The notes beneath the pieces were generated by a model that saw nothing but the letters and a program-made list of their open reading frames with translations, made no database searches and was not told the origin of the DNA. A stretch of DNA of 60,626 nucleotides, the filler included, from Stramenopiles sp. TOSAG23-3 (lineage: Eukaryota): assembly GCA_900128585.1 (NCBI GenBank). It is 12 parts of 12 records of this genome, joined end to end, with 100 filler letters (N's around TTAATTAATTAA, not from the genome) between each part and the next. Parts side by side here need not be neighbours in the genome. Positions count along the whole stretch, not along the records: positions 10,155 to 15,129 come from LT643649.1; 11 more parts are not named here. One strand, 5' to 3'. Position 1 is the first letter of the stretch; each line of letters opens with the position of its first letter. Position numbers and translations under genes: made by a program. Of the stretch, positions 127 through 30,281 are shown one piece after another.

Positions 127-868
127 CTATTCTATTTCTTTCTTCTATTGTATTTCTATATTATATGTATAACTTTTCCTTTCGAGTCTAAATGTGTAAA
201 AAAACGAGAAGTTAGTTAGTTAAATTAGATTTTAAAATAGTAATATACTGAATATATTAATAATAATACAATATTATAATATAATATCAATTTAGATAAT
301 ATATGTATAATATATAATATTGGATTTCTCAGCTGAACCAAAGCAGAGCCACACAGTTTGAAGTTCAATTCGGAAGGAAGAAAGAAAGAAAGGAAGAAAG
401 GAAGAAAGGAAGGAAGGAAGGAAGGAACGAGAGAGGAAGGAACGAGAGAGGAAGGTACACTTGAAAAAAGAAAGAAGGAAAAATTAGGATTTTATATAAT
501 TAAGTAAACATTATATAATATAAATTAAATATATTTATTATATGTACTGTAAGTATAATTAATATTTTGTTATAATTTAAATATAATAGTCTACCTTAAT
601 TATGGATAAAATCGATCATGTCAATGTGAGAACCAAAAAGACAGAAAGAACGAAGTAGTTGGAAGAACAACTAAACACAGTAAGGAGAATAATATAGAGA
701 GTAGAATACGCATGTGACACCACCGAATGGAACGAGATGTTGTAGAAACGTATGTATGAAAGGACTTGGAAATAGACACGTACATCAACAGCAACTTTCA
801 CACCAACACGTTTTAAATAAACACTTTACGAAAAGAAACACAACGTTCACTATCCACACTTAATAAAC

Positions 869-2407
869 ATGGTAAAATTCTCATCCCTATTCTACGCCGG
901 TGCCGCACTCTTTGCGGTGTCCGCCCAAGGAGTCCCAACCTTCCCCAGCCAGTGGAACTCGGACACCGCGTCCAAGCTTCTGTTGTGGCAAGGCGGTACG
1001 CACAACAGCACCGACGGTTCTGCGTGCTGCCCGAAGGAGGCACCGCAATGCAAGGTTCAAGCCGAAGGCCAACTTGGCACCCAGTTCGTTGACGGGAAGA
1101 ACAACATGACCGCCTTGCAGGTTGGTGGCCAAGCCATTATCTCCATCTACAACGGCCCAGGCGCGGGCAAGGAGTACTTGGTCGAGCCCTCCAAAAGTGG
1201 GTCCGGGTGGACGTGCCAGTCCTACTGCCCGTTGCAGAACAGCGATTTCTACAACCCGCTCACCTTCGACCCGTCCGCGCAGGACATGGGAAAGGCCAAG
1301 CTACCAAACGGCCAAACCTACGAACACTGGCAGTGGCAAGACAAGCTCTTCAAGACCATCAGCATGGACACCCAAGACTGGTTCATCACCCCGGGCTCCA
1401 ACGCGAAGCCATACCTGAACGCCGAGGCCCTCACCCCGTTCGGCGGCGCGCAAATCGCCGAGACGAGCACCGAATTCGACAACTTTGCCGCCGGATTGGG
1501 CAAGTTCAGCTTCAAGATTGACAACCTTTCCAGTTGCCAAGAAAGCGACAAATGCCAACAGAACAACGGGCTGGTCGGCAACTTCTTGAAGAAACACTTG
1601 AAGAACAAGCCGCAAGCCCGCCGCTCCCTTCTGGACAAGGCCGAAGAGATGGCCAACAAGAACAAGAAGGAATCCGTCGAGATGCAATTCATCGCCAAGA
1701 AGGACGCCACTGCCGCCCAGTTCCCAAAAGACTGGTCGGCCAGCGTCACCAACACCATGCTGATCAACCAAGGCGGCCAACCAGGCCCAGAGGGCTCCCA
1801 ATGCTGCACCTCCTCCTTCAGCGGCCAATGCCAAATCCAAAGCCAATACCAAAACGGCATGAAGTACTTTGACTTCACCAACCAGCGCACCCGCATGGAA
1901 GACCCCATCAACGGTATCGTCGTCGCCCTGTACGGTAAGGAAGGCAAGAACATGCTGGTCGTCCACAACGGCACCCACGACGTTTGCGAAAAGTACTGCC
2001 CCATCGACCCCCGCGACACCCTTCCAGGAGGCAACGATTACTTCTTGGACCCGAACGCGACCGACCTTGGCAAGACCACGTACAAGGGCCAATCCGCGGA
2101 GCACTACCAATGGAAACAGACCATCTTCAAGGTAATCACCATGCAGACCACGGACTTCTACGCCTCCGAAGCCGACTCCACCCCGTTGGGCGCCGAGTCC
2201 AAGCTTACCCCGTTCGGCGGGCCACAAATTGGCAGCCAAAGCACCATGTGGGACAACTTCAAGGCAGGCACCCCGCCCGCCAGCAAGTTCGACATCCACG
2301 GCGTCGACACCTGCCCACAAGACCCGCAATGCGGTCAACAAAAGTACCAAGCCCGCCGCTTGGCCGACAAGCAATTCCACTCGTTCGCCACGTACCACTC
2401 CGTCTGA
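869..2407 (+). CDS. Secreted protein with two tandem Cys-containing domains, ependymin-related (EPDR)/LolA-fold-like
   Basis: N-terminal signal peptide; clear internal duplication (FPSQW/FPKDW, CC..C, C..YCP, TPFGG, C-x5-C); YFDFTNQRTRME resembles the ependymin YD.xNxRxR motif; strong C-ending codon bias. Confidence 0.65.
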   Translation: MVKFSSLFYAGAALFAVSAQGVPTFPSQWNSDTASKLLLWQGGTHNSTDGSACCPKEAPQCKVQAEGQLGTQFVDGKNNMTALQVGGQAIISIYNGPGAGKEYLVEPSKSGSGWTCQSYCPLQNSDFYNPLTFDPSAQDMGKAKLPNGQTYEHWQWQDKLFKTISMDTQDWFITPGSNAKPYLNAEALTPFGGAQIAETSTEFDNFAAGLGKFSFKIDNLSSCQESDKCQQNNGLVGNFLKKHLKNKPQARRSLLDKAEEMANKNKKESVEMQFIAKKDATAAQFPKDWSASVTNTMLINQGGQPGPEGSQCCTSSFSGQCQIQSQYQNGMKYFDFTNQRTRMEDPINGIVVALYGKEGKNMLVVHNGTHDVCEKYCPIDPRDTLPGGNDYFLDPNATDLGKTTYKGQSAEHYQWKQTIFKVITMQTTDFYASEADSTPLGAESKLTPFGGPQIGSQSTMWDNFKAGTPPASKFDIHGVDTCPQDPQCGQQKYQARRLADKQFHSFATYHSV

Positions 2408-7219: not shown

Positions 7220-9718
7220 TTAGAATTTTCGTATTGCATTTTGAATATTCTCTGCGCTAAAATCACTTCTTAGGTTTAGCGTTTTTACCAGGTCTTCTTG
7301 GTTCAATTTCCGTATCGTCTTGTCTTCCATAAATTCGGAGATATCCTCCAATACCTCGACACTAAGCACGAGGGCCATTTCGCTGAGCCTAGCAAAGCGT
7401 TTTCGCACATTACGGGAACTTCGTTCGGTAAACAGAACCAACAGGGCTCGCAGGTCTTGGTCAAACTTTAGGCCCCCAAAGTGACTAAAAACCTTTCGGC
7501 GCAAGGCTCCTTCCACTCGCCGTGATACTGTTTCGATCACATGGTGGAGAATGTACTCAAAATTTCGCTTGACAAAGGCTATTCGGTAAGGATCGATAAT
7601 CACCTTCAGCCGTTCCACAATCTCCGATCGAAATGGATCCAAAGCCTCCATTTCATCGTATTCATTTTCATCTAAATCGTACCGAACCACGGAGCCTGCG
7701 CCATTCATTGCGTCCATTACCCCACGCACTCGCAGACGATGGGTTGCGCAAAGCTTTCCCAATCCAGCATCCAAAATTTTCTTACAGTGTGACCCACAGC
7801 TGCTCAACATTTCCAAACATCCCGCTATTTTGTCTTGGTCGCCATCTTCGAAAAAGACGGCCCGGCCCTCCTCCCGAAGTCGTTCCACTAGTCTACCGGT
7901 GTACTGAAACGCAGCGTGCAAATTGTTTAGAGTCACTGCGGACGATTCAGAGTCTTCCAACATCTGTAAGCCTATTTTGTTCAGGGCAGAAGCAGAGTAA
8001 TCATCGCCCAGCAGCAACTTCCCGTTGTCTTCCACATGATCAGTTCGTCTGCCATACCCCTCAACCAACGAGCTGCTTACCACGTTGCCAGCAAAATTTA
8101 TTACGGCGCAGTAATTGTCAACAACGCCCGTCGCTAAAGCCCGCATTGCACTATTTTGCAACAAAAAGAAGGTCTCTTCGATTGCCGAACTTGCACAACT
8201 CTCTGGCATTGCCCCAACGACTTGAAACGCACCATTTAGATCCCTGTGGTACCCTGGTGGTATTGAAATTTCGTCTCTTTCAAATGCAGACGTGCTGTTC
8301 TGTTGCATAGACTCGGCTTCCAGCTGTATGTAGTGCGCCGAAAGTTCCTGAAGCGCTATGCCAAGCGCCGACCGCCCTAATTTTTCGCGGGTCAGCCCGA
8401 ATTGGCCAACATCCAACGCTTTTGTTTGGGGCGTTAACGTTGGAGATGGGGCAGGTGTATCCTCGTCGCTGTCCTCGTCCAGAAAATCGCCACCGTCAAC
8501 ATGATCGTCCTCGTCGCTAGAAACGGCACTAGGCGCAGGTTCCTGCTTGTCGAAATCGCCCCGTGATATTTGTTTCCCCTGTTCTATTAGCCACCGAAAG
8601 TAATTTTCACAGTGCTGTGTCAACATGGCACATTGGTTCAAAACATAGTCAGCTTCGGCTGATAATGGTATTTCCATCCCGTTCGCATCCAACCCTTCCG
8701 TTTCCCCATTTCTTAGTTTTTCCGTCAGGTTTATCAACCGTTTATCATCAATGAAGCGTTTGATAAGTTTTGAGGCAATGAAATCGCATTCTTTGTTGAC
8801 CGCGGAGATCACGACGGCGAACTGGTGCGACAGTTTAGTTGGTTCAACGGTGACGTTTCCACCACCTTTCATGCAGTTTTCTGCAGTTGCTTTGCCTGTT
8901 TGCATAAGTTCAGAGGAGCGATTCAGCAGCCTAGACATGATTTGAACGTGGGGCATTGCGTTCGGCCTGTCGTCCACGGTGAGCATTTCGTCATCGTGAT
9001 GGGACTTCAACAGAGTCTTTAAAAATCCTACGTAGCGTTTCAGCCCATCATCGGATTTTCCCAGGGCAGCAAATACACGGTAATATTGCACGATCGCATT
9101 TTCGTCCCCAGCCGCCAGCGCTGCGTCAAACTTATCCACCGTGACTTGTTCCAAACGGGTTTCGGCGTCTGCAATAATTCGGCTGTGCTCCGAGCTTACG
9201 TCGATGCCTCTCGTTTGCATTGCAGTTTTACACAGCTGCACGTGTTTTGCAGCAGACGAGTAATCCCTCTCTCGCAGTGCACTTTTAATGCATGAAATGC
9301 TCTCTTTGACTTGGATTGTGGCTTTCGTCAGCGCGATCTTGGCCGCAATTGCAATTTTTTTATCCTCGAGGGCGTGAACTTTTTTGCTAATACTTGAAGC
9401 CGTCTTGTTTGCCAACTCAAGCTTGTCCCCGACTTTACTTAACCAGTGCTGGGACTTTTCTGTTTCAACCGAAGCGATCCGACGATATTCTTCAAGCTGG
9501 GGGAGAATAGTAAGCTCAAAAAAGTCCTGCGCTTCATCATCATCCAGAGGACTACTTTTCGGATACAAAAATTTCATTATAGCTTCCTCTGCTTTTGCAT
9601 CCTCGTCTTCTGTTGCTTTCAGAAGCACTTGAAATTCCGACAGAGTTTTGCACCGCATCACGTCCTCGTACTTCCCGTTTCCGGCGCCCTGGTCTCCTTG
9701 TTCCGTCTCCAACGACAT
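7220..9718 (-). CDS. COG4: Conserved oligomeric Golgi complex subunit 4
   Basis: DYSSAAKHV N-terminal motif, IEETFFLL...RALATG core, YDLDENEY, and C-terminal FSHFGGLKFDQDLR...RKRFARLSEM...LNLRSDF. Confidence 0.93.
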   Translation of the reverse strand: MSLETEQGDQGAGNGKYEDVMRCKTLSEFQVLLKATEDEDAKAEEAIMKFLYPKSSPLDDDEAQDFFELTILPQLEEYRRIASVETEKSQHWLSKVGDKLELANKTASSISKKVHALEDKKIAIAAKIALTKATIQVKESISCIKSALRERDYSSAAKHVQLCKTAMQTRGIDVSSEHSRIIADAETRLEQVTVDKFDAALAAGDENAIVQYYRVFAALGKSDDGLKRYVGFLKTLLKSHHDDEMLTVDDRPNAMPHVQIMSRLLNRSSELMQTGKATAENCMKGGGNVTVEPTKLSHQFAVVISAVNKECDFIASKLIKRFIDDKRLINLTEKLRNGETEGLDANGMEIPLSAEADYVLNQCAMLTQHCENYFRWLIEQGKQISRGDFDKQEPAPSAVSSDEDDHVDGGDFLDEDSDEDTPAPSPTLTPQTKALDVGQFGLTREKLGRSALGIALQELSAHYIQLEAESMQQNSTSAFERDEISIPPGYHRDLNGAFQVVGAMPESCASSAIEETFFLLQNSAMRALATGVVDNYCAVINFAGNVVSSSLVEGYGRRTDHVEDNGKLLLGDDYSASALNKIGLQMLEDSESSAVTLNNLHAAFQYTGRLVERLREEGRAVFFEDGDQDKIAGCLEMLSSCGSHCKKILDAGLGKLCATHRLRVRGVMDAMNGAGSVVRYDLDENEYDEMEALDPFRSEIVERLKVIIDPYRIAFVKRNFEYILHHVIETVSRRVEGALRRKVFSHFGGLKFDQDLRALLVLFTERSSRNVRKRFARLSEMALVLSVEVLEDISEFMEDKTIRKLNQEDLVKTLNLRSDFSAENIQNAIRKF

Positions 9719-10154
9719 ACTGATTGGCAGAAGATGAAGAACGACAACAAAGCTCCAAGTTCCTCTTTCTTTTAGCCCGTTCGCGCGTTAATACGAAGAA
9801 CCTTACTTCTTCGATTAAATCTTCTTAATCCCTTTGTCTTTTTCCATCTTAAAATATTATGTGAACTTCTTTTCAATTAAAAAACTAGAAGGGAGTTAGT
9901 GATACGAAAAATAACATTGAATAACATCGAAAAAACTTATTTAGAAAAAGTTCTATTTTATTTTCACTATACAAATTTATATATGAAGTTGTTACAAATA
10001 CAATATTTTAGGTTTTTGCAAAACAATAAAAGAAGGGCTAGCTTCTTTGGTATGNNNNNNNNNNNNNNNNNNNNNNNNNNNNNNNNNNNNNNNNNNNNTT
10101 AATTAATTAANNNNNNNNNNNNNNNNNNNNNNNNNNNNNNNNNNNNNNNNNNNN

Positions 10155-13100
10155 GTATTTTCTAAGCTTTCTCACAATTCTCTGGCTAACCAATCAAACA
10201 AGTCCAGCGGGTTTTACTTCGAAGTGACAAAAATTCACGCTGTGATTACAGGTGGAAGGATTACTTCTAATGAATCGTCAAATGTCCCTTACATAATTCA
10301 CAGAGATGCATGCCATGTTACGTTTAAAATCCCGGAAAGATTCCAAGTCTTGGGCGCGTACCTTAAAACAAATATATTATCATTAAGTGAGATTACGAAC
10401 AATATGAAAAAGTGTCATCCATACATTAAGAAAACGAGCGTTAAAGATCTTTTGAGGGCACTCGTTGTTACCGACGAAATGGAACTGCAGAAGGCTGAAG
10501 CTAAGACTAAACTGTTGAATGATTTGAAACTTAAGTTTAAAATCGACGGTGGTGAAATGCTCAACGATCCAGCTGATATTGTCTACAAGATTGGGGATCA
10601 TAAAAAACGATCGTATAATTTAGCTGTTTTCAACGGGGACGGCGTCGACGTTTCGGCCGATGTCAGCAAATTTTGCAAAGTTCTAGTAGAGTATGTAAAT
10701 TATAATCCAGAGGAGTTTGGAAACAAGGAACTGGAGGAAAATGAGTGGGGTCCGACGTCCTATCATTTCCAAACGAATTTTTATTGCAATATGGACAATG
10801 CGGGTACTTTCACCAGGCGCTTTACACTGCAAAATGAGAAAACGGGAAAGAAAATTACAACAAAACAATTGTCAGAGATAGTCAAATTTCCAGAGAAGTC
10901 ACAAATTGCGGTAGACGTCGATCTGCAAAATCCTTACCTCGACATGGAACTCCGTCAAGGAACCACGTTCAGTTTTGAATATGAGTTACTGGACAAGCAC
11001 AGCAACAAACTGCCCCCTTCCTTGTGCAAGGCTGCTAATATAACGTTCCAAAACAATGATTTTTCCTTGAAAGGCATCCCTTCATACGATCATAATTGTC
11101 GTACAAGACGAAGGTATTCAGAAGCAATGATCAAGCCCAAGCGTGACACAAACAAAGCATTTACAAGCGTACAGAAGGTAGCATTTGAAATCTATTTAAA
11201 TGGTAAAAAATGTAGGAGCAAAATTCACTTCAATAAAGTACGGCCAGGGAAGGTCCACAGTGTCCAGGTGAAAAGTGGGATGGCAGTTCGAGCAAACAAT
11301 GGACCGAGATATAAGCCGAAGCGGCTGGTGTGTACGACGAGCGACGAGTACGGAAATGTTACCGATGACTGGAACGAAGACCAGACAACGATCCAGGGCG
11401 ACTCTTGTGCTTATGAAATCACGAAATGCGATCGTGGAAGAATGGAATTGATGCCAAATATCAATTGGGGGACCGTTGATCGGGGAAAATCTAAGAAAAC
11501 AGACAAATTACGTTGTGGTGATTTGAAAATGCCCAGTATAGAATGTGAATTTACAAAATATCTCCAACCCAATGCAGTGAAGCTGGTGAATAAAAACTCC
11601 GGAATTCCGTTGGAACAGCCCGTACATGTTAATTGTGGTTACGATAAGCTAGATGCGCGGTTAGCATTCTACTGTGATGATGTTTTATGCAAAAATGATG
11701 AAGTAGAACAATACGTGAAAAATGGAAAGTGCCGTATTGTAATTGATGACCAGCCCGACGATTCAACCTTTAGTTTTGAAGAAATTCCAAAACGTATATA
11801 TTTTCCCACTGAAGCAGGCCAAAAGCTTTTGACCATTCAAGTGCCAATGAAGGAGGAACCTATTGGAGCGCTTGAAGCGTCCTGTAGTATTATAGTTGGC
11901 GCTGATTTATCATCACTGAAGTGGACGCTTGTCAAAAAACACAGAGGTGATGACCTAGCAGGCATTACTATTGGCGAAAGCCTTGGTACGTTATTTGAGT
12001 CCATTGTGTGCACTGATCGGTATAAAAATCCTGTGATGCCATCAAAACCTCCAAAATTTGCCCTTCAGTCTGAATGTTTCTCTTTATCAATTGACACATT
12101 TGGCGAAAAACTAAGAAATGGCTATAAAATAGACAGCAAAATGTCCGTAACTGGCCGTTTCTCTGAAAACATGCCAGATGAGACGCAGATAAGTATTCTC
12201 ATCGATGGATCTGAAGCAGACGAAAAAGTAAAGATCAAGAAGGGTGAACCAAAAAGGGTAATTTTTTTTTATCGCGGTGAAGAATTGAGCAATGGTGTGC
12301 TGAACGTAGAAACAAAGTACAAGCGACAATTGGAGTACAAAATATTTGATGACAATGGAGACGTAATTGAACGCCAAATTGGTTGTATGTTTACACTGGA
12401 TAAAGTTTCTGTTCTAAAGCGGGCGAACAAAAAAGTCAATATAACAGGGGAAGGTCCCTTGAACAGCCATGCTACCTTAAAATGTCGGGTTGGGCATAAT
12501 AATTCCGTGCTGCTGGGCCAAATAAAGGTCAATTTGGTACTTAAGACTGATAAAATCTCCAAAATATCATGTGTACAACCACCAGTCAGACGTACGTATG
12601 TAACAACAGACTGTTTTAAGCATTTGAAGTTTAAAATAGAAACTGAGAATGGTTTGTGGCCTACACGTTTACGGTGGGAAAAAAGCTGCACGCTATCCCT
12701 CAAGTACAAAAACATAGACGACGAGAGCCATTTTGAAGATGATAACCGCAAGATTTTTGCGAGAGCAAAGTTTGACAAACAAGACAAAACGATAAGTTTC
12801 CAAGCCGGACAAGGAAAAATGTTTGAAAAGGTGGGAGATTTCGAAGTGACATTGTCTATTGAAGGTTGCCGTGATTCTGCTGTTTGTCATTTTCACGTAG
12901 AAATAGGAGAAACAAAGGCTTATGTCTGCACAAAGTCCACTGTGGTTGAAACCATTGAGCTCAATTTCGTGACTCACAATCCGCATCTTTTTGATGCAAA
13001 GCGCGGCCATTTTATGCTTCAAAAGCGTGATGTTCACAATAATCTATCAACGGTCAGTGAAAACATTGTGCTTCGACTCACCCCTGTACCGAAAGAGAGT

Positions 13101-14621
13101 AATCGCAGAAGTAACGATGGAGCTGCTCCTATTTCGTCCGCCTTGGCGCCGACCAGCAGCAGCGGGCTTTCTTTGGGTCTCGGAGAAAACACAGGTAATC
13201 CAGCAGACTGTGAAGTGTTTGCACACTTGCTTGGCGCGAGCTCAGAGGGGAACAAAATGGTTCAATTTGAACGAAGGGGGTTTCCTTTGGGCGACCTGCA
13301 AGTGGATTATTGTGCCCAAAATATTTCTCAATGTTGTTTTGGACAATATAGACTTGAGGCGCGCCTTGAAAGCGAGAATGTCGAAGATTTCAGACCCTGT
13401 GAAAGAGAAGACGGCGAGAAAAGGTTTCCAACTGTATTTGTGAGCATAGAAACAGATGTTTCAGAGGAAAAGAACCTTTTGTTAACGGAAGAAACTCGAT
13501 TGAAAAGGGGGAAAAAAGATTTGGAAAGAGAATTAAAGAAATTAAAAAATACCCGCAGTAGAGCACTCGCAATACAGAGAAAGATCAATGATCGAGAGCA
13601 TCCTTTGAAAATTAAATTGGGTGAACTAGGAGTTGGCAGCCCAGAATGCAATCAAAGTGTAGATGAATGGGCATTAGACGATCTTGAGAAAAAGAAACTC
13701 GAGATTCAGATAAATGATGATAAATACCAGGAAGCTAAACGATTGATAACGACCAGCGATCGGCACTACAGTAGCATCCCTGCCCAAGACATCTACGATT
13801 TACCATTCTTATCGAATGTTCGTGTAAGTCACAGTATAAATCGTGTTGCTATTAGTGCTTATCTTGACCAAATGATGACAATGACTCCAATAACTCCAGA
13901 TTGGGATAACCAAGCGCCTAATAAATTTAAAATAGGAGACGAAAATTGCACATTGACTTTGTTTGATGTACCTGAAACGCATCCTGAAAACTCCAATTGT
14001 TCCAACGCTTTTTCAAGTGTTTGCGTGAAAGATGGTATTTACAGGAAGGCATGTAACCAATTACTGCGCCACGTCATCATTTTTTCGGACGAAAATGCTG
14101 CCTTTGAGTTCCAGAAACAGTGCATACAAAATAATGAAGCTCTAAAGAATGTCCTGGTAATTGAGCAAAAAGAGGATGGCAGTAACGAAGGAAGTATACC
14201 TTTTAATGGAAAGTATTACACAGTCTCTATTATTGACCACCAAGGTTGCAAACGTGCCTTACCTCCTCCACAGTATATCGTTAAGGGTTCGAATGTTGAA
14301 CATCGAACGGAATCTGAATCAAGCGCGGAAGGCGATCCATTTTTGAAACAAAACGAAATGAGATTCATGCAATGCAAACGAGCAGAAGACGGGGTCCGTA
14401 AACTTATGGATCTGAAATCAGAATTAAAAGAGGTAACAGAAGACCATATTCCTTCCTATCAGGAAAAACTCGATGAAAAAGAAAGGAAATGTAAAATATT
14501 AAGTGAGCAAATTGAGCAAGTGGAGGAAAAGATTGAAAGTCTTGATAAGAAGGGGAACGGGAAAAGGAAACGAGGTGCGAGGGAAGAAACGCGAAGAAGA
14601 AGAACAAAATCGAGGAGATAG
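10155..14621 (+). CDS. Large SMCHD1/GMI1-like protein, 5'-truncated (Ig-like repeats, coiled coil, SMC-hinge-like domain, coiled coil, basic tail)
   Basis: Frame is open from the contig edge at 10155. Recurring D-x-Y/N/H-x-N turns (DEYGN, DRYKN, DDNGD, DVHNN); hinge-like segments AISAYLDQMM and QLLRHVIIFSDENAAFEFQK lie between coiled coils. The CDS is certain; the family call is moderate. Confidence 0.6.
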   Translation, partial: VFSKLSHNSLANQSNKSSGFYFEVTKIHAVITGGRITSNESSNVPYIIHRDACHVTFKIPERFQVLGAYLKTNILSLSEITNNMKKCHPYIKKTSVKDLLRALVVTDEMELQKAEAKTKLLNDLKLKFKIDGGEMLNDPADIVYKIGDHKKRSYNLAVFNGDGVDVSADVSKFCKVLVEYVNYNPEEFGNKELEENEWGPTSYHFQTNFYCNMDNAGTFTRRFTLQNEKTGKKITTKQLSEIVKFPEKSQIAVDVDLQNPYLDMELRQGTTFSFEYELLDKHSNKLPPSLCKAANITFQNNDFSLKGIPSYDHNCRTRRRYSEAMIKPKRDTNKAFTSVQKVAFEIYLNGKKCRSKIHFNKVRPGKVHSVQVKSGMAVRANNGPRYKPKRLVCTTSDEYGNVTDDWNEDQTTIQGDSCAYEITKCDRGRMELMPNINWGTVDRGKSKKTDKLRCGDLKMPSIECEFTKYLQPNAVKLVNKNSGIPLEQPVHVNCGYDKLDARLAFYCDDVLCKNDEVEQYVKNGKCRIVIDDQPDDSTFSFEEIPKRIYFPTEAGQKLLTIQVPMKEEPIGALEASCSIIVGADLSSLKWTLVKKHRGDDLAGITIGESLGTLFESIVCTDRYKNPVMPSKPPKFALQSECFSLSIDTFGEKLRNGYKIDSKMSVTGRFSENMPDETQISILIDGSEADEKVKIKKGEPKRVIFFYRGEELSNGVLNVETKYKRQLEYKIFDDNGDVIERQIGCMFTLDKVSVLKRANKKVNITGEGPLNSHATLKCRVGHNNSVLLGQIKVNLVLKTDKISKISCVQPPVRRTYVTTDCFKHLKFKIETENGLWPTRLRWEKSCTLSLKYKNIDDESHFEDDNRKIFARAKFDKQDKTISFQAGQGKMFEKVGDFEVTLSIEGCRDSAVCHFHVEIGETKAYVCTKSTVVETIELNFVTHNPHLFDAKRGHFMLQKRDVHNNLSTVSENIVLRLTPVPKESNRRSNDGAAPISSALAPTSSSGLSLGLGENTGNPADCEVFAHLLGASSEGNKMVQFERRGFPLGDLQVDYCAQNISQCCFGQYRLEARLESENVEDFRPCEREDGEKRFPTVFVSIETDVSEEKNLLLTEETRLKRGKKDLERELKKLKNTRSRALAIQRKINDREHPLKIKLGELGVGSPECNQSVDEWALDDLEKKKLEIQINDDKYQEAKRLITTSDRHYSSIPAQDIYDLPFLSNVRVSHSINRVAISAYLDQMMTMTPITPDWDNQAPNKFKIGDENCTLTLFDVPETHPENSNCSNAFSSVCVKDGIYRKACNQLLRHVIIFSDENAAFEFQKQCIQNNEALKNVLVIEQKEDGSNEGSIPFNGKYYTVSIIDHQGCKRALPPPQYIVKGSNVEHRTESESSAEGDPFLKQNEMRFMQCKRAEDGVRKLMDLKSELKEVTEDHIPSYQEKLDEKERKCKILSEQIEQVEEKIESLDKKGNGKRKRGAREETRRRRTKSRR

Positions 14622-16875
14622 TAACGGCGACGAAGGAGTGGCGGTGTTGGCGCGATAAATATTGAGTTACATTAACATATGTTTTAACATACGTACATAT
14701 CATATCCTTGTTCTTATTTTACGACCTGAGCGACACGTCAACCCACTATACTGATCATTCCTTAAACGATTTACAAGACAGAAAAGAGTACCTTTAAAAC
14801 AACAAGAGGATATTTCATAATACTGTGTAGATGAAACGATAAGAGTAAATCGATCAAGAAGAACACAGGAGCAGAAACAAATCGCAGTATATGAAAGAGG
14901 CAAAACTTCACAGGACAAAAATATATTACATTGTAAGGAAGAGGATGGATTGGTAGTGTCGTGTATAACTTTAGATAATATATAGATCTAAATTACATCC
15001 ATTATTTTCTTTTATTTATAAATTCCTTTAACATATTTCATTTCCCCTACATGATACATCACTAAAAAAACGCGTACCCAATGGTCGCTGCCCCGTCTAA
15101 CGCTGCGCTCGGGTGGGCATTGCAAATCCNNNNNNNNNNNNNNNNNNNNNNNNNNNNNNNNNNNNNNNNNNNNTTAATTAATTAANNNNNNNNNNNNNNN
15201 NNNNNNNNNNNNNNNNNNNNNNNNNNNNNCACTTTTATATTATATCAATATACAGTTCAATTATTATTAAATTTCGCCAAGACCTTCCTCTTCCGCACGC
15301 ACGCATTTAATCAAAAATTGTAAACCAAACATTCATCCATTCATTCAATTCTACCTTTTCTGTTTATTAGAATGAACCATCATTTTTTTATTATTATTAT
15401 TATTTTTATTTACTACTTCTCTTCTTCATTTTTTTCGTTCCATCATCATCGTATTAATTTGTTGTTTTTTTTCGGGTTGGTTCTTGTCAGTCTATTTATT
15501 ACTAAAACATAATACTAATTAAATAATGAGCTCGTAGTGTACGTAGTGGAGTAGTATTTATTATTATTATATATAGGAGACTCTACTATTTCTTTTACTC
15601 TCCCTACATGGTATAATGGCAATTTAATTAGCTCTCATCCATTTAACTTTAGATTGGCTCTCATAGTTAATCGTATTCTTATGTTAATTCTATTAATCCA
15701 TTGTATTCTTACATACCACTATTTCATCCAACTTAGAAATTACGAAACATACAAAAGTTAAGTGAAGATTAAACGGATGAAAAACAATATATTTATTAGA
15801 CTTTCCTGATAATTACAATAGTAGTAGTACAGCTGTGATATAAAAATATGTTTAGTTTAAAAAAACAAATAATTATAATGGAACAAACGAACTATGCAAC
15901 TATATCCTTAATATGTAAATGATCGAATCGGTTTGGAAAGAAAGAGATAGAGAAAGTGTACAGTAGTAGGGCAGGAAGGCAGGCAGGCAGGTAAATAAAT
16001 ACAATACAATACAATACAATACAATTCAATCAAATCAAATCTGACAACTTTTATCATATCACAGCAACAAGGCAAGGAAGGGAATTCGTTCTGATAGGGA
16101 GTTTATTCGTAATTAAATTAAAAAATAGAGGAATCGAAAACCTATGCTGTGGGATGTATTGTTTGAATATCAAAAACTTATGCTGTGGCATGTCTTTACT
16201 ATTTGAATTATAAAAACGTCTGTGATTGGTTTATTTCCTCTTTGTTTCTTGGCTTGGTGGTAATTATTGGTAATAATAAATAGAAAACAATAAAAAGCCC
16301 TAAATCTATCTCTATACTTAAAATCGAAAATCAAAATCTCCGTCCACTCTCCTCTACGTAGATAAAATCCAATGGAAGTTACGTAAACATCTCGATACTA
16401 TATATTGTACTACAGTTTAGATTATTATTGGAATAAATCATTCGAAATGAAGCAATAATACACAATGTACAAAATATCTAATAATCAATAATCATTATCT
16501 CATTCATCATCATTCATCATCAAAAAAAATAAATAATAATAATAATAATCAATCTACTAACTACAGAGTATCTATATTATTATCCCCCTCCCGCCCTCCG
16601 CCGCCACATCAATCATTTCAAGAAATCATCTCATATAAAAACAAATTCAGTCACAACATGTTGATATACGGCAGTCGTCACTATCTGTCTATTTCTTTTC
16701 TAAGTTACGAAAAGTAATGTAGGTATGTGTTGCACATACGAACAAACAAACAGGAGTGAAAAACAATACTTTACGATTCTACCCGTTTTCAATCCAGTTG
16801 TTCAAACGTGTAAGCAACTCTGTGGATATTGCAGCAAAGTTTCGCATCGGCCGTCTACGAAGCGCGTCCGCGAAC

Positions 16876-21864: not shown

Positions 21865-24800
21865 TTAGAAATCCTCGTCGTCGCTCGTGAAGTCGACCAC
21901 CCGTGCACCCTGCACCATGATGGGCGCTTTCAATTCCCCCATGCCCCGTCGCCCGCCTTCTCGAGAATTGAGCCCCCGGCGTTTGTTTTCTAGACGGGCT
22001 TTAATCTTCTCTCGGTGCCATGCCTGGTTTCGCTGCAGGGTGGCGGTCAGGCCTTCCACCTCCTTCTCATGCTGGTCGCGGATGGTCAGCACTTGCTGGT
22101 ACGCGGACGTGGTCTTTTGGGGCTGCTTCATGCCCATCGTTGCCGCGTGCCGCTGCGCCAGCATCGCATGCTTTTGCGCCAGCATCGACTGCCCTTTTTC
22201 GAACTGGGTCAGCCGCTGCAGCAAGGCCTCCCGCTTTGCAGCCTCGGCCTTGAGGGCAGCATCCTTTCGGGCCAACTCTGCCTTGAGGCGCTCCGCTTCC
22301 GACACGGTCGTTTTGGCTTTTAATTGCTCCTCGTAGAGCACCTTCTCCAGCTCCGCTCGCTTTCGCTTCTCCTCTTCCAGCTTGGCCTCCCGCTCCTCCA
22401 GCCTCGACCGCGCCTTGTCCATCGCGTCCATCGCACTCTTTCGCTGGGACGCCAGCTGCTGCCCCATCTCCTTCCGGATGGCATCGGTCTTCTTCCGAGC
22501 CTCCTGCATTTCCAGTATGAATTTCGTCTCCTTTTTCGCCAACTCCTTGGACGATTCCTCGGCAGAGCTGGCCTTGGACTCGTAATTCACCCGGAGTTGG
22601 CTCAGGTGGCTTTCCACGTCCTTGACGCGCTGCTCTTCTTTGTGCAACGCTTCCAGGAGCATGTGCATTCTCTTGTTGCGCTTGCTGGCCCGCTTTTTCA
22701 GCTTGTCCAGCTCGCCCTGGAGCTTCGCCTGCTCCGCCTTTGCCTTCTCCGACGTCTCGCTGACCTTGCTTTCCGCGCGTTGCTTCATCTCCTCCAGGGC
22801 GTGCTCGAGCTCGGCCCGGCGGTCGTTCTCTTCTTCCAGTTGCTGCTGGAGCACCATGCTCCGCTCCTCGTGTTCTGCGGCCTTCTTTCCGGTCTCGATC
22901 GCCTTTGCCCGCGCCTCCTCGGCCCCCCTCCGTTCCACGTCGAGCTGGCGCTCCATCTCCGACGCCATCTCCCCCGCGCGATTGTTCGTTTCCTCCAGCT
23001 GCCGCAGCAGCCGAGATTCCTTCTCCCTCGCTTTTTCGTTGCTTTCGGAGAGCTTGTCCGCTACTTCTCTCTGCACTTCCAACAGGGCCGTTTCCAGCCG
23101 CGTCCGGCGCTCTTCCTCCTTCTCCAGCTGGGACTTCAGGATCGAGGAGCGTTCTTGGTGGCCTTCGATCACGCGGCTCTTGACCTGGGCCTCCAGCCTA
23201 ACCTTCTCCAGCGCCGCCCTCTCATCCGCTATCCGCTTCTCCATCTCCGCTTCCATTGCCTTCCGTTTCATGTTGAGCTCTTCCAGCTGCGCTTCGAGCT
23301 CCCGCTCCTTCGCCTTCGCCCTCGTGCTAGTCTCGCTTACCTTGCTTTCTGCCTGCGCGTGGACCTCCCGAAGCGCTTTCTCCAGCTCTTGCCGTTTTCG
23401 GGACTCGGTCTCGAGCTGGGCCTGGAGCTTGCTGCTCCGCTCCGCGTGCAGTTCCATCGCTTTCGCCTTCTCGTGCGCCTCTGCCTGCGCCAGGATTGCC
23501 GCGGCGCGCTCTTCGCTGACGCGTTTGTGCATTTCTTCGGCCACCTCCTTCTCGCGCCGGTTGGACGTGTCCAGCTCCGCTTGGAGCCGCTCCTTTTCCC
23601 CCCTCGCCCGGTCCGACGTGTCACTGACCTTGCTCTCCAAATCCTTCTGCAAGTCCCGCATGGCCCGCTCGAGCTCCGCCCGCCTTGATCGCTCCTCCTC
23701 CAGCTCTGCGGATAGCTTGTTGCTTTTCTGCTCGTGCAGCCTCGCCTCGCTGTCCTTCTCGACGGCCTCCGCCCGGGCCTCCGCCAGCACCCTTCGTTCG
23801 GCTTCAATCTTCTGCTTCATTTCGTTCGCCATCTCGTGCGCGCGCAGGTTCGACTCCTCGAGCGCCTTCTGCAGGCGTTCCTGCTCCACTTTCGCGTGCT
23901 GACTCGTTTCGCTGACTTTGCTCTCGGCCGCCTGTTCTGCCGACGCAAGGGCGTGCTCCAGCTCCTTTCGTTTCTGCTCTTCCACCTCCAAGTCCCTCGC
24001 TATTTTCTCCATGTCCTCCCTGTACGCGCGCTCCCCGTGCTCCTTCGCGAGCTTCTCGGCGATCAGCTTCTCCTCAAGCTCTGCCTTTTCCAGCTGCAGC
24101 TGCGCTTCTTTCAGCTCCGCCTCGGCGATCGCGTCCTTGGCCTGCTGAGCATGCTCTTTGAACGCGTTTTGCTCGCCCTTGAGTGTCGACAGAAGCTCGT
24201 TTCGATGGGTGGGGCTTTGTTTCGGGGACAACGACTTCGTGCCCCCCTTTGGGCTCGCTTTCCCGCTCCACTCCCCGGTCATTTCCCAGAGCCCGTCGTT
24301 CAGCATTCGCGTCTTCATGCGTTCTGCCTCCAGCAAGCTCAGCTGCAGGGCCCTTTCCAAATCGCTCTCCTCGCGCTGCCGCTGCCTTTGCTGCTCTTCC
24401 TGGGACACCTTGTAAATCGTCTGGGACTCTGCCAGGATGCTCGGGTCAATGCCGTCGGGGTCCGAGGGCGTTCCCCGTGCGTTCGCCGACAGCCTGGGCT
24501 TTGGGATCTTCCCGCCGCCCTTCTCCTGCCCCACATGCTCCTTGTTGTAGGCCTCCGAGAGCTCCGACTCGTACTCTTGGAGCCGCTTCAAGTCTGCTAT
24601 TAGCACGGTGACCTGCGTGGGGTTCGTGAGCAGCGCGTTCATGGACGACGAGGAATCCGGGGAGTTCTCGAAGCACTCTACGATTTGTTTGGACGACGGC
24701 TCTCCGCCGGTCTCCTTCACCAAATCGTACATGCGATTCAGGAGGGTCCCAGGCATGCGAAACTGGGAGCGGCGGCACTTGGCCTTCTGCTTCGTAAGGT

Positions 24801-25253
24801 CATCCGAGATTTCGTCCACGGTGCGCTCCTTCGCGCTGCCGGTCATCTGGGGCCTCGGAATCCTGGTCCGCTTCGCCTCCCCACACATGTCGCACTTGCG
24901 CACATTCCCCGGGTTCAGGAACGTGCACTTTGCGCACGCCCACTGCGCCCCCTCGCCCTTCCCCGACTTGGTTTCTTCCGCACCAGGCGTGTCCCTCAAG
25001 TAGTCCGACGCGGACAGCTTGTCATGCTTCACCTCATCCCACCGGCGGTTCATCATTCCTGCAAACTCCTCGAACGAGTCGAACGTCAACAGTTTCCGAA
25101 GCACGTCCTTGACGGCCGCGTCCCTGGGCCCCCGATCTCGCTCTTTCAGTCGTTCCTCGCACGCACGAGCAAACGTTTCGTCGTCCCCCCCGAGATCCCT
25201 CAGGACGGTTGCCACGCAGGTGTCCACCAACTCTTTGAACCGGTGCCATATAT
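21865..25253 (-). CDS. Coiled-coil protein with partial BART (ARL2-binding/CFAP36-like) domain, RanBP2-type zinc finger, UIM and 96-aa tandem repeats; probably 5'-truncated
   Basis: LLTFDSFEEFAGMMNRR (end of BART); WACAKCTFLNPGNVRKCDMCG (zf-RanBP2); EESDLERALQLSLLE (UIM); ESKVS(E/D)TS recurring every 96 aa. Confidence 0.75.
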
Positions 25254-25353: not shown

Positions 25354-28300
25354 CGAAGAAGGAAGAGGAGCTGAAGCAGTTCCTCGACCAAGAAAGGGAA
25401 GAGCTGGAGAAAGAGAAGGCCGCCCAGGCGATGGCCCAGCAAGAGGCGGAGGAGATGCTGACCCACGCGCAGGACGAGCTCCTGGACATGGAGACGGACG
25501 CCGAGAAGATGAAGCGTGAGAACGACTCGCTCGTGGAGCAGCAGCTGGAGGAACAGAAAGAGATGGCCGTCCAGCTCGTCGAGGAGGAGCGCGAGAAAGC
25601 GGAGCTGACCATCAAGCGGCACATCGAGCACGAGAAGCGGCGCCACGAGGAAAAGTTCCGGGTGACGGAGGAGCGGCTGGGGCAGGTAGAAGAGAACGAA
25701 GCCCGGGACCTGGAGTCCCTCAAAGAGCTGCACGAAGAGAAGGTGGTCGAAATAAAGCACGAAATTTCCCGCACCAAGCGGATGCACGACGCCGCGCTGG
25801 AGGCCAACAGGGAGATTATTACCCGAAAAGAGCGGGAGTTCGAGGAGGTGATGTACCGCACGAAGCGGAAGCAGGAGGAGGAGATTTTTGAGTTGGAGTC
25901 TAAAGTAAGGAAGCTGCAGCTGGAGCAGGGGGCGAAGAAACTGTTCAAGAGCTCGGGGAAGGCGAAGTTCGAGGAGGCAAAGCACGCCCTGGAAGAGAGG
26001 CGGCGGCAAATAGAGAGCGAGCGGAAGCAGAAAGAGCGGGACCACAAGGGGGAACTAAGCAGGCAAGCGCAGGAGCACCGGCGGCAAGAGGACCGGCACA
26101 GCGACACCGTGAAGCAGCTGGAGGGCAAGCTGCGCAGGGTGAAGAAGGAGAACGAGCGCGAGTTCGACCAGCAAACGAGGAGGCTGGAGCAGAAAAAGCA
26201 GCAGCACCGGCAGGAGCTTGAGCGGGCAAGAAAAGACCACGACAAGAACATAGAGCGGATCACGGCAGAGAAAAAGAAAGAAATGAAAGAGGCAAAGAAG
26301 GCGCACGACGAGCACCTGAAAAAAACGAAGACCGACCTGGCCAACTCGAGCGACCCCGACAGCATCCTTAGTTCAACCCTGGGGGGCAAACACAACGCCG
26401 TGTTGAAGCACGGCATGAAGTGGAAGTCCAAGTCAAAGGTAAGGTCCGTGGAACGGAACGCGGCCGACATACTCAAGGAGAAAGAGGAGGAGCACCGGCA
26501 GCACCTGCAGAAACTGAAGGAGGAGAGGGAAAAAGAGATCCGCGAGCAGCAGCAAGCAGAGAAGGTGTACCGAAACGCGCAAGAGATGCTTTTAAAGAAG
26601 CACATGGCACACGTCGAAGAGGAGCACAGAAGGAAGCGGCAAATGGAGGAACGGGAGATCGCGAGGATCAAGAAGGAGCACGACGAGTTGCTCAAGCAGC
26701 AGCAAAAGACGCACAGCCACGCGTTCGACAAGGCCTTGAAGGAAAACGAAGAAACGATGCGCGAGTTCAGTAACCAACACGAGGAGAAACAGCGCGCCCA
26801 CAAAGCGGAAGTGGACAGGGTGAAGGAAGAGCACGAACGGCGCCTCAAGGAAAAACATTTGGAGAACGAGCGGGCGATTGAGCAGGTCAGACAAGAAAAC
26901 GCCGCCGCAGTGGCGCAGGCAACGCGAGAGCACGGAATCAAGATGAAGTTCATCATGAAGCTCAACGCCGCCGCAGACCGGAAGACCAACATGGTGGCGC
27001 GCCTGGGAAGGTCCTGGAAGCACAACGTCTCGAAGAAGAAGGCCCGGGAGGAAGGGTTGAGCAAGGCCAGGGAGACCGAGGCAAAGATGAAAGAGAGGGA
27101 GAAGCAGATAAAGGAGAAAGAGAAGGAACTTGCGGACAACCTGAAACGCCAGAAAGAGCACTACGATGCCGAAGTAAGGAAGCAAAAACTAGAGGAGGAG
27201 AATTACCGGAAAGAGCAAGACAGGATCTACAAACGGGACCTTGTCCGCACCGAGGAGATGCTGCGCAAGAAAGAGGCGGAGCAGGAGGGGGAGCTGGAGC
27301 GGGCCAAGCGGGAGCACGCCGAGCTGCTGGCAAAGCAGGCGGCCAGCCACAGCCACCAGTTCGACAGGGCCCTGCAAGAGAACGAGGAAAAGTTGAAGAA
27401 GTTCCAAGAGCTGCACGACCATAAGCAAGAGAAGCACGCAGAGGCAGTGGCGAAGATGAAGGAAGAGCACGACCGCCACATTCGCGAGAAGCATGAGGAG
27501 TCCCTCCGCCTGGTCCGACAGGCGAAGGAGGAGAACGAGGCCGCCGTTGCCCAGGCGAAACGGGAGCACAACCTCAAGATCAAGTTCATGAACAAGCTAA
27601 ACAAAGTGGCAGACCGGAAAGCGAACATGGTCGGGGGACTGGCCCGAAAGTGGAGGGGCATCTCACAGAAGCGCACCGCAGTGTCCAAGGCGCGCGAGGA
27701 GGCGATGGAAAAGATTCGAAAAGCAGAGAGCCACCGGCTGGAAACGGAGACGAAGCTAAAAAAGCGGGAAGACGAAATGCGCGAGGAACTCCGGAAGGAG
27801 CAGGAGAAAATGCTCCAAGTCATGCGCGAGGAGGAGGAGAAGCGCTTGAACCTCGAGAAGAAGCTGCAGAAGGACAAGGACACCCTGGTGGAGCTCCACA
27901 AGAAAGAGCAAGGGAAATCGGCCTTCAACAACACCCTAAGCAAGTGGAAAAACCGAAGCAAGGAGAGGCAGCGCAAGATCGAGATGGAGGAGGAGCGGAA
28001 AAAGGCGGACCGGCGCATTAAGCAGGAGGAGGAGGACCGGAAAGCGTTGGAGAAGAAGCTGGCCAACCAGGAAGACAACATGCTCCAGCAGGAAGCTGCG
28101 ATGAAGAAAAAGGACGAGGAGATGAAGCGAAAGAGCGCGGAAATGGAGAAGAAGATGAAAGAGATGAAGGAGCAGGAGAAACAGATCCTCAAAATGCAGG
28201 CGGAGCAGAAAAAGCTTACGCAAAAACGGAAGGAGCAGGAGGAGGTGCTCGAGAAAGTGAGGGAAGAGAAGGTGAAGCAGGAAAAAGAGCTGGCAAAGGC

Positions 28301-30281
28301 GCGGGAGGCACAGACGAAGATGGAGCAGGACGCGAAGAAGAAGCAAACCATGATCGAGCAGCAGCGCAAAGACGCGGAGGAGGCGCGGAAGCTCGCGGCG
28401 GAAGCCCTGGAGAAGGAGAAGAGCGTGATCGGGGCGAAGCTTGAAGCGCAGCGCCAAAAGATGCTCAAGTTGGAGGCGCAGCACGGGAAGTCCGAGCGGG
28501 CGAAGCTGCTCCTGGAGGCAGAGAAACACGAGGAGCGAAAGCTGTTCGAGCTGTTCGAGAAGACGGAGAAGCTGGCCAAGGAGAAGCTCGAGGAGGAGCA
28601 CAAGAAAGCGCAGCAGCTGCTGACGGAGGAAAAGAAGGACAAAAAAAGGCTCCTGGAGGAAGAGAGGGCAGTGGCCAAGCGCATCGTCGAGAAAGAGAAA
28701 GAGATCGCGCGCGCGCAGATCAAGCAGGAGCAGGCCGCGGCGGAGGCCGAGATTGCGAAGGAGAAGGCGAAGGCCCAGGAAGAGATCCTGAAGATTCAAA
28801 AAATGAAGAAGGATGCCCTGGAGAAAGCCGCGGCGGCCGAGAAGAAGGCGAAGGGCATTGCCGTGAAAGCGAAGATTGGGGGGCGGATCGGGAACAAGCT
28901 GATGATGAAGAAGCTGAAGAAGAGCAACCTCGTCATGAAGTTCGCGCAGAAATGGAAGAAAAAGTCCGACCTGAGCGCGGCCCTCGGGAAGATCGAAAAA
29001 ACCCTGGAGCTCGAGCGCAAGCGGGAGGCGTCCCTTCGCACGCGGGCGGAAAACATGGAAAAGCACCTGTTCGAGCGGGACAACCAGCTCAAGGAGGCTA
29101 ACCTGAAGATAAAAGAGCTCGAAGAAACGAAGCTCAAGGCGATGACGGAGGAGCACGCTGCCGAAATCAAGACCCTGACCGAGGGCTTCGAGCGGAAGCA
29201 CGACGAGACGACGGAGAAGCTGGAAGGGGAGCTGCGGACGTTCCAGGCGCGCGCGGAGGAGTGGAAGGCTGCCGTAGGCGCGGCGGAGACCCGAATGAAC
29301 GACCTGGAGAATGAGACGAAGGAGACCATTGCCAAGCTGGTGAAGAAGATCGAAGCCAAGAACGACCTGATGCACCGCGCCCGGATCCGCGTCGCAAAGC
29401 TCGAGGCGGAGCGAAACGTCCTTCGACGGAAGATCGACGAGTTCCGCTCCCGGGAGGCCACGCTAGCGGAGGAGGCCGCGACGGAGGCGGAGCGGCAGGT
29501 GAACGCGCTGAGCGAGCTTCGCCGGCAGGTGGAGAAGGACGCAGAGGACCTGGACATGAACCGGGGAGTCGACCCTGACTTGCTCCTGGCAAACGGTTCG
29601 GGCCGGCTGAACCAGAACAACGCGTACCAGAACACCACGTACTCGTTCTCCGGCCTGGGCAGGGGCTCGCGCGGGCACCACCGCGCGCTGGTCGGGACCG
29701 ACAGCGTGCTCGACGCTGCGATCCGCGCAGCGCCGCTCCCTTCAAGGTCACGGGGCGCGTCCCCCGTTTCGCCGCCGAGCGTTTCCGACGCCCGCGCCAC
29801 CGCGGCGGGCAACGCTTCCCCGTACGCCACGGTGCCCGGGGCAGCGATGGAAACCAAGGAACAGCTTGAAGTGAGCCAGAAGCGGCGGGAGGAGTACACA
29901 AAAATGGCCTACTTGGACCGGCTGCAGTCGCAGGTGGCCCAGGCGCGGGCAGAGGTGAACGTGGCGAAAGAGGCCATACGGCTGCAAAGCATACGGAGCA
30001 ACAGGTCGCGGATCGACCCGTCCTCGCCGACCAGGCTGAGCATCGGGGAGCGGCTGCTTCAGCACCGAATGGAGGTCCCCCTGATGGTATCGCCCTACGG
30101 GGATGGCAGCAGGGCCGGGAGCCCAGTGCCGCTGGAAGGCGAGGACCTGCTGTACGACGAGGTCATCGGCTTCGAGGGGAAGAGCGCGTTTGCCTCCGGC
30201 TGGGGGCCGGGTGGTCTCAGCGGAATGATGAGCACTGGGCAAGGGGCAAGAAGCATGAAAGGGTTTGGGTCGCGCTACTAG
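25354..30281 (+). CDS. Very large E/K/R/Q-rich coiled-coil or single-alpha-helix protein, 5'-truncated, with an internal duplication
   Basis: >1600-aa open frame; charged helical composition; duplicated HSH(A/Q)FD...REH...K.KF..KLN..ADRK.NMV block 212 aa apart. Confidence 0.85.

Follow-up and report, generated by a model that had tools for sequence, protein, structure and literature searches.

What kind of protein is encoded by the long open reading frame (ORF) at positions 10155 to 14621 (plus strand) of the DNA analysed here? The window, by which we mean the whole stretch of 60,626 nucleotides (nt) from Stramenopiles sp. TOSAG23-3 (GenBank assembly GCA_900128585.1), consists of twelve distinct contigs, each roughly 5 kb long, with artificial N44-12mer-N44 linkers between them, and it comes from a eukaryotic source assembly (G000) of 28.4 Mb in 7,088 contigs. 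The ORF lies on contig C3554 (window 10155-15129; LT643649.1), of which position 10155 is the edge, and it is stop-free from the first base of that contig to a TAG at 14619-14621, with no intron seen. It encodes 1,488 amino acids (aa), whereas no frame exceeded 172 aa when the contig was shuffled 200 times. Very probably, the ORF is the 5'-truncated remainder of an SMCHD1-type gene and encodes the C-terminal three quarters of the protein. By analogy with vertebrate SMCHD1, we favor the view, with somewhat less assurance, that the protein is a fast-evolving chromatin-bridging ATPase that would most likely compact and silence repeats or heterochromatin.

Does the ATPase expected of such a protein lie beyond the contig edge? 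The first-pass annotation of this locus had predicted a GHKL domain there, and a walk through the source assembly bears the prediction out. Contig C1172 (535 nt) ends in the same 79 nt with which the ORF begins (10155..10233, plus strand), and it starts in turn with the 79 nt that close C2609 (1,113 nt). Both overlaps are exact and of complex sequence, and each occurs at one other place only in the source assembly. The frames of C2609, C1172 and C3554 are all open and in register, and together they amount to at least 1,984 aa. Upstream of C2609, no further contig was found in the source assembly, and the region of an N-terminal UBL domain is unassembled in this copy. The best Pfam match of the C2609 frame is SMCHD1_S5 (PF22899; E 2.4e-5, in two stretches), and HATPase_c_3 (PF13589) is matched at positions 66-115 with E 2.5e-4, while Morc6_S5 (PF17942) gave no match to C2609 at E <= 10. 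What the 5' extension reached is thus a GHKL motif together with an S5 domain of the SMCHD1 type, both under their Pfam cut-offs, and no unrelated domain.

Further observations on C2609 are in keeping with this assignment. It is one of eight PF13589 matches in the source assembly and was retrieved in that search independently of the contig walk; by translation, the others are MLH1-like, three Hsp90s, a second MutL-like protein, a Topoisomerase VI-B-like GHKL protein (C4936 578-2800, plus strand) and, last, C1734, to which we return. In the ESM Atlas, C2609 lies near GHKL clusters (0.91), most of them bacterial, and less near a plant MORC cluster (0.87). An ATP-lid glycine run at aa 30-37 of the C2609 frame is intact, and its place in the PF13589 match suggests that it corresponds to motif III of SMCHD1, which the accessible part of one structural paper puts at residues 234-238 (PMC6620310). 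A lysine at aa 230 of the same frame, inside the S5 match, is a candidate for the switch lysine. The AlphaFold2 model of the ATPase/S5 piece was uninformative, and Foldseek returned nothing under E 0.2 with it.

How secure is the placing of GHKL and hinge on one polypeptide? Two exact, in-frame overlaps of 79 nt make the connection, and the first alone is crossed by an independent record, the JGI/IMG protein P0002, which spans the C2609/C1172 join and matches at 19 of the 20 residues beyond it. About 20 residues past the join, P0002 shifts to another frame of C1172 (about 138-240) and ends at a stop; this shift reflects either an allele with a deletion or a fault in assembly.

The gene is not alone in its genome. 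Contig C4017 (2-2041, plus strand) carries a piece of a paralogue with the end of the linker, the coiled coils, the hinge and the basic tail, and it aligns with our ORF over about 700 aa at 26% identity (E 7e-10). A second piece, C1734 (3-515, minus strand), begins after motif I, carries GHKL motifs II and III at 41% identity, shares the ATP-lid glycine run, and passes the PF13589 cut-off with 32.3 bits. No contig link between C1734 and C4017 was found in the source assembly, and the two pieces may belong to one gene or to two.

What lies at the other end of the protein? The globule at aa 1203-1385 (13761..14309, plus strand), between two coiled coils, is probably a strongly diverged SMC hinge, as several weak and concordant signals indicate. 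When the globules were scanned by themselves, SMC_hinge (PF06470) was matched at E 0.1 here and at E 0.067 in the C4017 paralogue, at model positions 77-112/115; it was the sole match of the paralogue globule, and it matched none of ten other segments scanned alongside. The globule of our ORF also matches MukB_hinge (E 0.25). A joint profile of the two globules returned only three of 177,635 PDB sequences at E <= 10, with SMC4 hinges at ranks 1 and 2 (E 0.1 and 0.3); the SMCHD1 hinge 6n64, present in that library, was not returned at this threshold. In the ESM Atlas, aa 1090-1488 fall nearest to an unnamed eukaryotic cluster (0.93), followed by DMS3-like clusters at ranks 2-3 (0.92) and an SMC_hinge cluster (59% of members) at rank 4 (0.92), on a background in which shuffled proteins score 0.9 in 4-10 of 100 cases. 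Foldseek, a check proposed in the first-pass annotation, put a Smc5/6 hinge region first, at E 0.04 and with a poor model of the globule. The suggestion of a C-terminal SMC hinge is favored by agreement among weak signals, and a confident fold was not obtained. The two peptides that had prompted that suggestion are both in the globule, at aa 1230-1241 (13842-13877) and aa 1300-1321 (14052-14117). The S5 match, on one contig, and the hinge matches, on another and in the paralogue, point independently to two halves of one known architecture.

The segments that surround the globule complete this architecture. The first short coiled coil (13455..13760, plus strand) is made of helices at aa 1101-1157 and 1169-1202 in the predicted model, and the second (14337..14555, plus strand) of a helical stretch at aa 1395-1458 (14337-14528). 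These helices mostly have predicted local distance difference test scores (pLDDT) of 65-86, with a drop in the first to 42-53 mid-way and to about 30 at its end. A basic tail follows (14559..14618, plus strand), the last 25 aa having a net charge of +11; it is likely a nuclear localization signal, and a basic tail also terminates the C4017 paralogue. The coiled coils flanking a globule and the basic tail were both described in the first-pass annotation and are found as described. The order of domains is then GHKL and S5 (on C2609), a beta-rich linker of about 1,350 aa, coiled coil, hinge, coiled coil and basic tail.

Most of the ORF, aa 1-1100 (10155..13454, plus strand), belongs to the linker, in which beta-forming residues are abundant; this description comes from composition and motif counts. 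Turns of the form D-x-[YFH]-x-N start at 10992, 11343, 12015 and 13029 (aa 280, 397, 621 and 959, plus strand), four against 0.42 in shuffles (P = 0.001, for a pattern picked post hoc). The exact D-x-Y-G-N occurs once, at aa 397, and self-BLAST detects no internal repeats in the ORF's protein, so that, in the earlier description of beta-rich repeats with D-x-Y-G-N-type turns, the repeats are conjectural, 'beta-rich' reflects composition and the turns occur mostly in the looser form. Across C1172, the last part of C2609 and six linker pieces of 200 aa each, no Pfam family passed its cut-off, BAH and Ig-like domains included, and the whole protein of the ORF matched nothing in Pfam better than E 0.5. 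From the composition and the turns we infer that the linker is a chain of Ig-like domains. A secreted or surface protein with Ig repeats was also considered, and is ruled out by the basic tail, the GHKL domain upstream and the lack of a hydrophobic segment: no membrane segment was found in aa 1-1100, and the highest 19-residue mean of hydrophobicity is 1.37.

A number of observations weigh against the reading of this protein as an SMCHD1-type silencing ATPase. For this copy, only the second half of the GHKL domain is assembled; the catalytic Glu and Asn belong to motifs I and II, neither of which is in the assembly. The C2609 matches score 24.7 bits for SMCHD1_S5 (cut-off 27) and 21.5 bits for PF13589 (cut-off 25), and the PF06470 matches of the two globules score 13.5 and 14.0 bits, under a cut-off of 22.5. 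The join of C1172 to C3554, at position 10155, is not spanned by any listed contig of the four sequencing runs described below. HHalign comparison of the globule with three canonical SMC hinges gave E 0.31, though the alignment was colinear across 91 columns, and local hidden Markov models gave no cross-match in either direction (290 ORFs). AlphaFold2 models made from two-row alignments were poor (mean pLDDT 49.9 and 33.7). The hinge core has a net charge of -4 here (+5 in the paralogue), a poor fit to a DNA-binding pore. The strict hinge motif GX6GX2-3GG is missing from both our protein and the C4017 paralogue. Constraint on the ORF is weak, and the chromo-shadow domain of HP1 is unmatched in the source assembly, in a search whose controls were blank.

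Structural modelling adds little on either side. Over most of its length the globule model has pLDDT < 50. VIA searches with the low-confidence models gave either noise (best Z 3.5) or generic coiled coils (best Z 9.7, root-mean-square deviation 1.9, 72 aligned). That 6n64 and 6mw7 do not appear in the lists obtained with these models is not counted as evidence. A complex prediction with two hinge copies scored 0.00, the fold being uncertain and the alignment unused. Deepening of the canonical hinge profile gained 1 of 43 loci in one set and none of 87 in the other.

What should be made of the glycines? The motif is GX6GX3GG in canonical hinges and GX6GX2GG in SMCHD1, where it lies beside the interface that opens, according to the accessible part of PMC7458401. 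The first-pass annotation had called it degenerate, and rightly: the spacing is changed and there is no GG. In the segment at 14178..14246 (plus strand), glycines at aa 1342, 1346, 1352 and 1364 still stand where they are expected, following the last hinge helix as G-x5-G or G-x9-G, with a single G 12 residues further on, in an ambiguous register, and then comes a Pro-Pro-Pro run shared with the paralogue. The glycines fall among predicted strands with pLDDT of about 50. The paralogue spacing is G-x7-G-x10-GG, with the GG retained further on, and two of the three canonical hinges of the same assembly have the strict motif. We regard the glycine motif as a conserved feature of hinges that does not define the architecture, and count the protein as a variant. 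Most likely, the changed motif alters the opening of the hinge interface while the fold is retained.

Is the gene under selection, and is it expressed? Part of the stretch occurs in 20 sequencing runs, labelled as marine or seawater metagenomes except for the possible source and one run without a label, and four of them, from four studies, were compared at 90% likeness. They cover 28, 26, 25 and 20 of 30 bins, with no joints and no insertion or deletion in the ORF. Two of the four are metatranscriptomes (25 and 20 bins), whose contigs cannot prove transcription; both lack cover at 14471-14802. The weak constraint referred to above is seen in 15 variants in the ORF, six synonymous and nine non-synonymous, for a ratio of non-synonymous to synonymous polymorphism (pN/pS) of 0.39 (P = 0.07 versus neutrality). 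These variants, together with the intact frame, fit a working yet fast-changing gene.

Could the protein act in silencing in this organism? Its genome encodes four C5-methyltransferase domains (on C3576, C3127, C701 and C6579), one of them within a 2,129-aa frame that, to go by its size, could be of the DNMT5 type. It also encodes a strongly diverged Argonaute (C814 1-2505, plus strand), with a PAZ match at E 1.7e-8 and a Piwi match to positions 1-168 of 302 within the piece scanned. With C5-methyltransferases and a PAZ-PIWI protein, a silencing context exists. If the family is a guide, our protein would enter the nucleus by way of the basic tail, dimerize head to head through the hinge and coiled coils, bind DNA at more than one site, and bridge and compact chromatin. 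ATP binding at the GHKL end would open and close the clamp, and the beta-stranded linker between the ends would be flexible, as that of vertebrate SMCHD1 suggests. Its job would then most likely be the compaction and silencing of repeats or heterochromatin, in a genome that encodes C5-methyltransferases and an Argonaute as well. For vertebrate SMCHD1, direct and ATP-modulated bridging and compaction of DNA is described in the accessible part of one preprint (bioRxiv 10.1101/2025.07.08.663435), and that of another places a second DNA site at BAH-IGL-1, with a stimulating effect on the ATPase (bioRxiv 10.64898/2026.02.05.704097).

Might a protein of the same architecture serve mainly in double-strand-break repair by homologous recombination, as Arabidopsis GMI1 does? 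Human SMCHD1 is reportedly found at sites of DNA damage, and the unmatched HP1 shadow domain lends a little weight to a repair function. GMI1 has the same layout of GHKL and hinge and is linked to break repair in the accessible text of PMC5651269. The S5 domain, however, matches a model named for SMCHD1, and the genome encodes methyltransferases and an Argonaute; we consider repair by analogy with GMI1 unlikely to be the main job, though it is the strongest of the alternatives.

A second alternative is that the duplication left this copy as a partner that is non-catalytic or in decay: a DMS3-like scaffold paired with the better-conserved paralogue, or else a gene on which selection has relaxed. 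The existence of a second copy (26% identity in C4017 and 41% in C1734), the fewer hinge glycines kept and the acidic hinge core here, the pN/pS that is not clearly under neutral, and the departure of P0002 from the frame after the join would all suit such a fate. So would the isolation of the gene: phmmer with the C2609 frame against 1.84 billion representatives gave two matches and no relative beyond P0002, a fragment of the same gene (the other match, to P0003, a repetitive bacterial adhesin, is spurious). Set against decay are 1,984 open codons with no insertion or deletion of the ORF in four other runs, the intact ATP-lid glycine motif held in common with the paralogue, and the lysine in the region of the S5 switch loop, if that assignment is right. 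On balance, a lapsed or purely structural partner seems improbable.

Another use of the duplication is just as improbable in our estimation. The two copies, one with an acidic and one with a basic hinge, could form a heterodimeric GHKL-hinge machine that acts against mobile DNA or viruses. Both would have remodelled the glycine motif of the hinge, drifted too far for sequence searches to recognize and come to pair as canonical eukaryotic SMCs do, and their fast evolution would follow because the machine is directed at mobile DNA or viruses. Least probable of all is a partly accidental resemblance, by a wrong contig join or by a non-hinge globule on a MORC-like ATPase with an unrelated tail: the second join is made by assembly overlap only, the hinge E-values are 0.04-0.3, shuffled proteins do reach 0.9 in the ESM Atlas and the same globule segment matches Rap_GAP at E 0.02, but each overlap is exact, of complex sequence and in frame, and has no other counterpart in the assembly, the S5 and hinge matches point separately to the two halves of one architecture, and the SMC_hinge match recurs in the paralogue, where there is no Rap_GAP match. 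A fast-evolving SMCHD1-type chromatin-bridging ATPase remains the reading we prefer.

How widely is the gene distributed? Word-based searches for homologues yielded none among 4,831, 1,890 and 6,743 candidates. Locus scans gave 0 of 60 and 0 of 290 metagenome contigs and 0 of 34 and 0 of 256 viral ones, sets outside which near-identical records possibly lie, and searches of PDB sequences with single pieces or with alignments A1 and A2 returned nothing relevant. When the source assembly was searched with PF22899, C2609 did not come up and the match obtained was to an unrelated ORF on C6002, which means that such genome searches can overlook diverged copies. Morc6_S5 was likewise unmatched in the source assembly, again with blank search controls.

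What does such a protein mean for the family? Mammalian SMCHD1 silences the inactive X chromosome and repeat arrays. To our knowledge, SMCHD1 has been studied almost only in mammals. A duplicated, very diverged and transcribed-looking copy from a free-living marine protist would provide data on the role of the family where there is neither X inactivation nor imprinting, and a hinge that lacks the glycine motif provides a natural experiment on the importance of hinge opening. Copies like this one sit below the thresholds of standard annotation, with no Pfam family over its cut-off and no relative found by phmmer. The organism is apparently uncultured, which limits experiments. The first-pass annotation went too far in proposing a little-studied system outside animals and plants: the accessible part of Iyer, Abhiman and Aravind (2008; PMC2292703) already describes a 'distinct ancient eukaryotic lineage' in which a MORC GHKL and S5 module is fused to a hinge and coiled coils. 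We found no literature on SMCHD1 in stramenopiles or unicellular eukaryotes, in a search outside which lay most subscription journals and all supplements, where lists of protist homologues are possible. Classification as SMCHD1-type is most likely correct, and the family was already known to occur beyond animals and plants. The features that set this gene apart are its extreme divergence, the existence of a second copy and a remodelled hinge motif; otherwise the finding is modest, and no new system is involved.

The remainder of the window deserves brief comment. Because the contigs are artificially joined, there is no true gene context flanking the ORF on either side. The preceding linker occupies 10055..10154, and the COG4 gene at 7220-9787 sits on a different contig and is not genomic context of the ORF. 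COG4 and the genes for a MYST acetyltransferase, HSF and HAUS6 on adjoining contigs show that the source is a eukaryote. A viral origin, raised by the contig linkers, is ruled out by these ordinary eukaryotic genes. Shortly after the stop codon, at 14731-14950, is a dispersed intergenic repeat with 33 other matches on other contigs of the source assembly (71-94% identity, in two segments); its one Rfam match is snoR64, at 23.4 bits against a gathering score of 45, and it is possibly a short mobile element.

Several other frames were seen in passing. At 40529-45478 (minus strand), one open frame of 1,650 aa fills its contig; it encodes Ig domains of a PKD-like type plus a cysteine motif resembling that of ephrin receptors, and it is likely part of a giant surface protein. 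A multi-pass membrane protein in which leucine-rich repeats accompany a cysteine-rich domain of a Frizzled-like type is encoded at 31112-35371 (minus strand), and a single frame at 46089-47294 (minus strand) combines a CAP-Gly domain with FAM221. The 528-aa frame at 821-2404 (plus strand) is secreted-looking, apparently has two similar halves, and has no Pfam match at E <= 0.001. Very long, charged coiled-coil frames lie at 21868-25251 (minus strand), which starts with a BART domain, and at 25356-30278 (plus strand); the guanine-plus-cytosine fraction of their contigs is 0.57-0.59, versus 0.40-0.47 in the other contigs of the window.

How, then, does the protein compare with known systems? It shares a hinge-like segment with canonical SMC1-4 proteins, and SMC4 hinges head the PDB matches of the profile that includes the paralogue. 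It differs from them in having neither ABC ATPase halves nor an SMC_N Pfam match, in coiled coils that span some 100 and 65 aa rather than several hundred, and in a hinge that is C-terminal, the ORF ending about 100 aa past the globule; three canonical SMC hinges are encoded at separate places in the source assembly. MORC ATPases and the lineage in which GHKL and S5 are fused to hinge and coiled coils, as described in the accessible part of PMC2292703, are like it in layout; the differences are that Morc6_S5 is unmatched here and that neither CW nor any other MORC reader domain was detected. Arabidopsis DMS3 has the same succession of coiled coil, divergent hinge and coiled coil, and DMS3-like clusters stand at ranks 2-3 in the ESM Atlas, but DMS3 is without an ATPase in the accessible text of PMC5651269, while more than 1,590 aa, GHKL and S5 included, precede the first coiled coil here. 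Arabidopsis GMI1, by the published description in the same source, is alike in its GHKL module and C-terminal SMC hinge.

Vertebrate SMCHD1 is the nearest in plan, with differences. Divergence is such that phmmer finds neither its ATPase module (6MW7) nor its hinge (6N64), its GX6GX2GG is not kept, its BAH domain is undetected here, and there are two paralogues here. From motif III to the candidate switch lysine is about 195 aa here versus 287, and from that lysine to the end about 1,754 aa versus 1,480 in the human protein of 2,005 aa. The order of GHKL, S5, long beta-rich linker, short coiled coil, hinge and short coiled coil is the same in both. So, nearly, is the length of the C-terminal module, counted from the first coiled coil onward, which is 388 aa here and 390 aa in human SMCHD1 (1616-2005, in the accessible part of PMC6620310).

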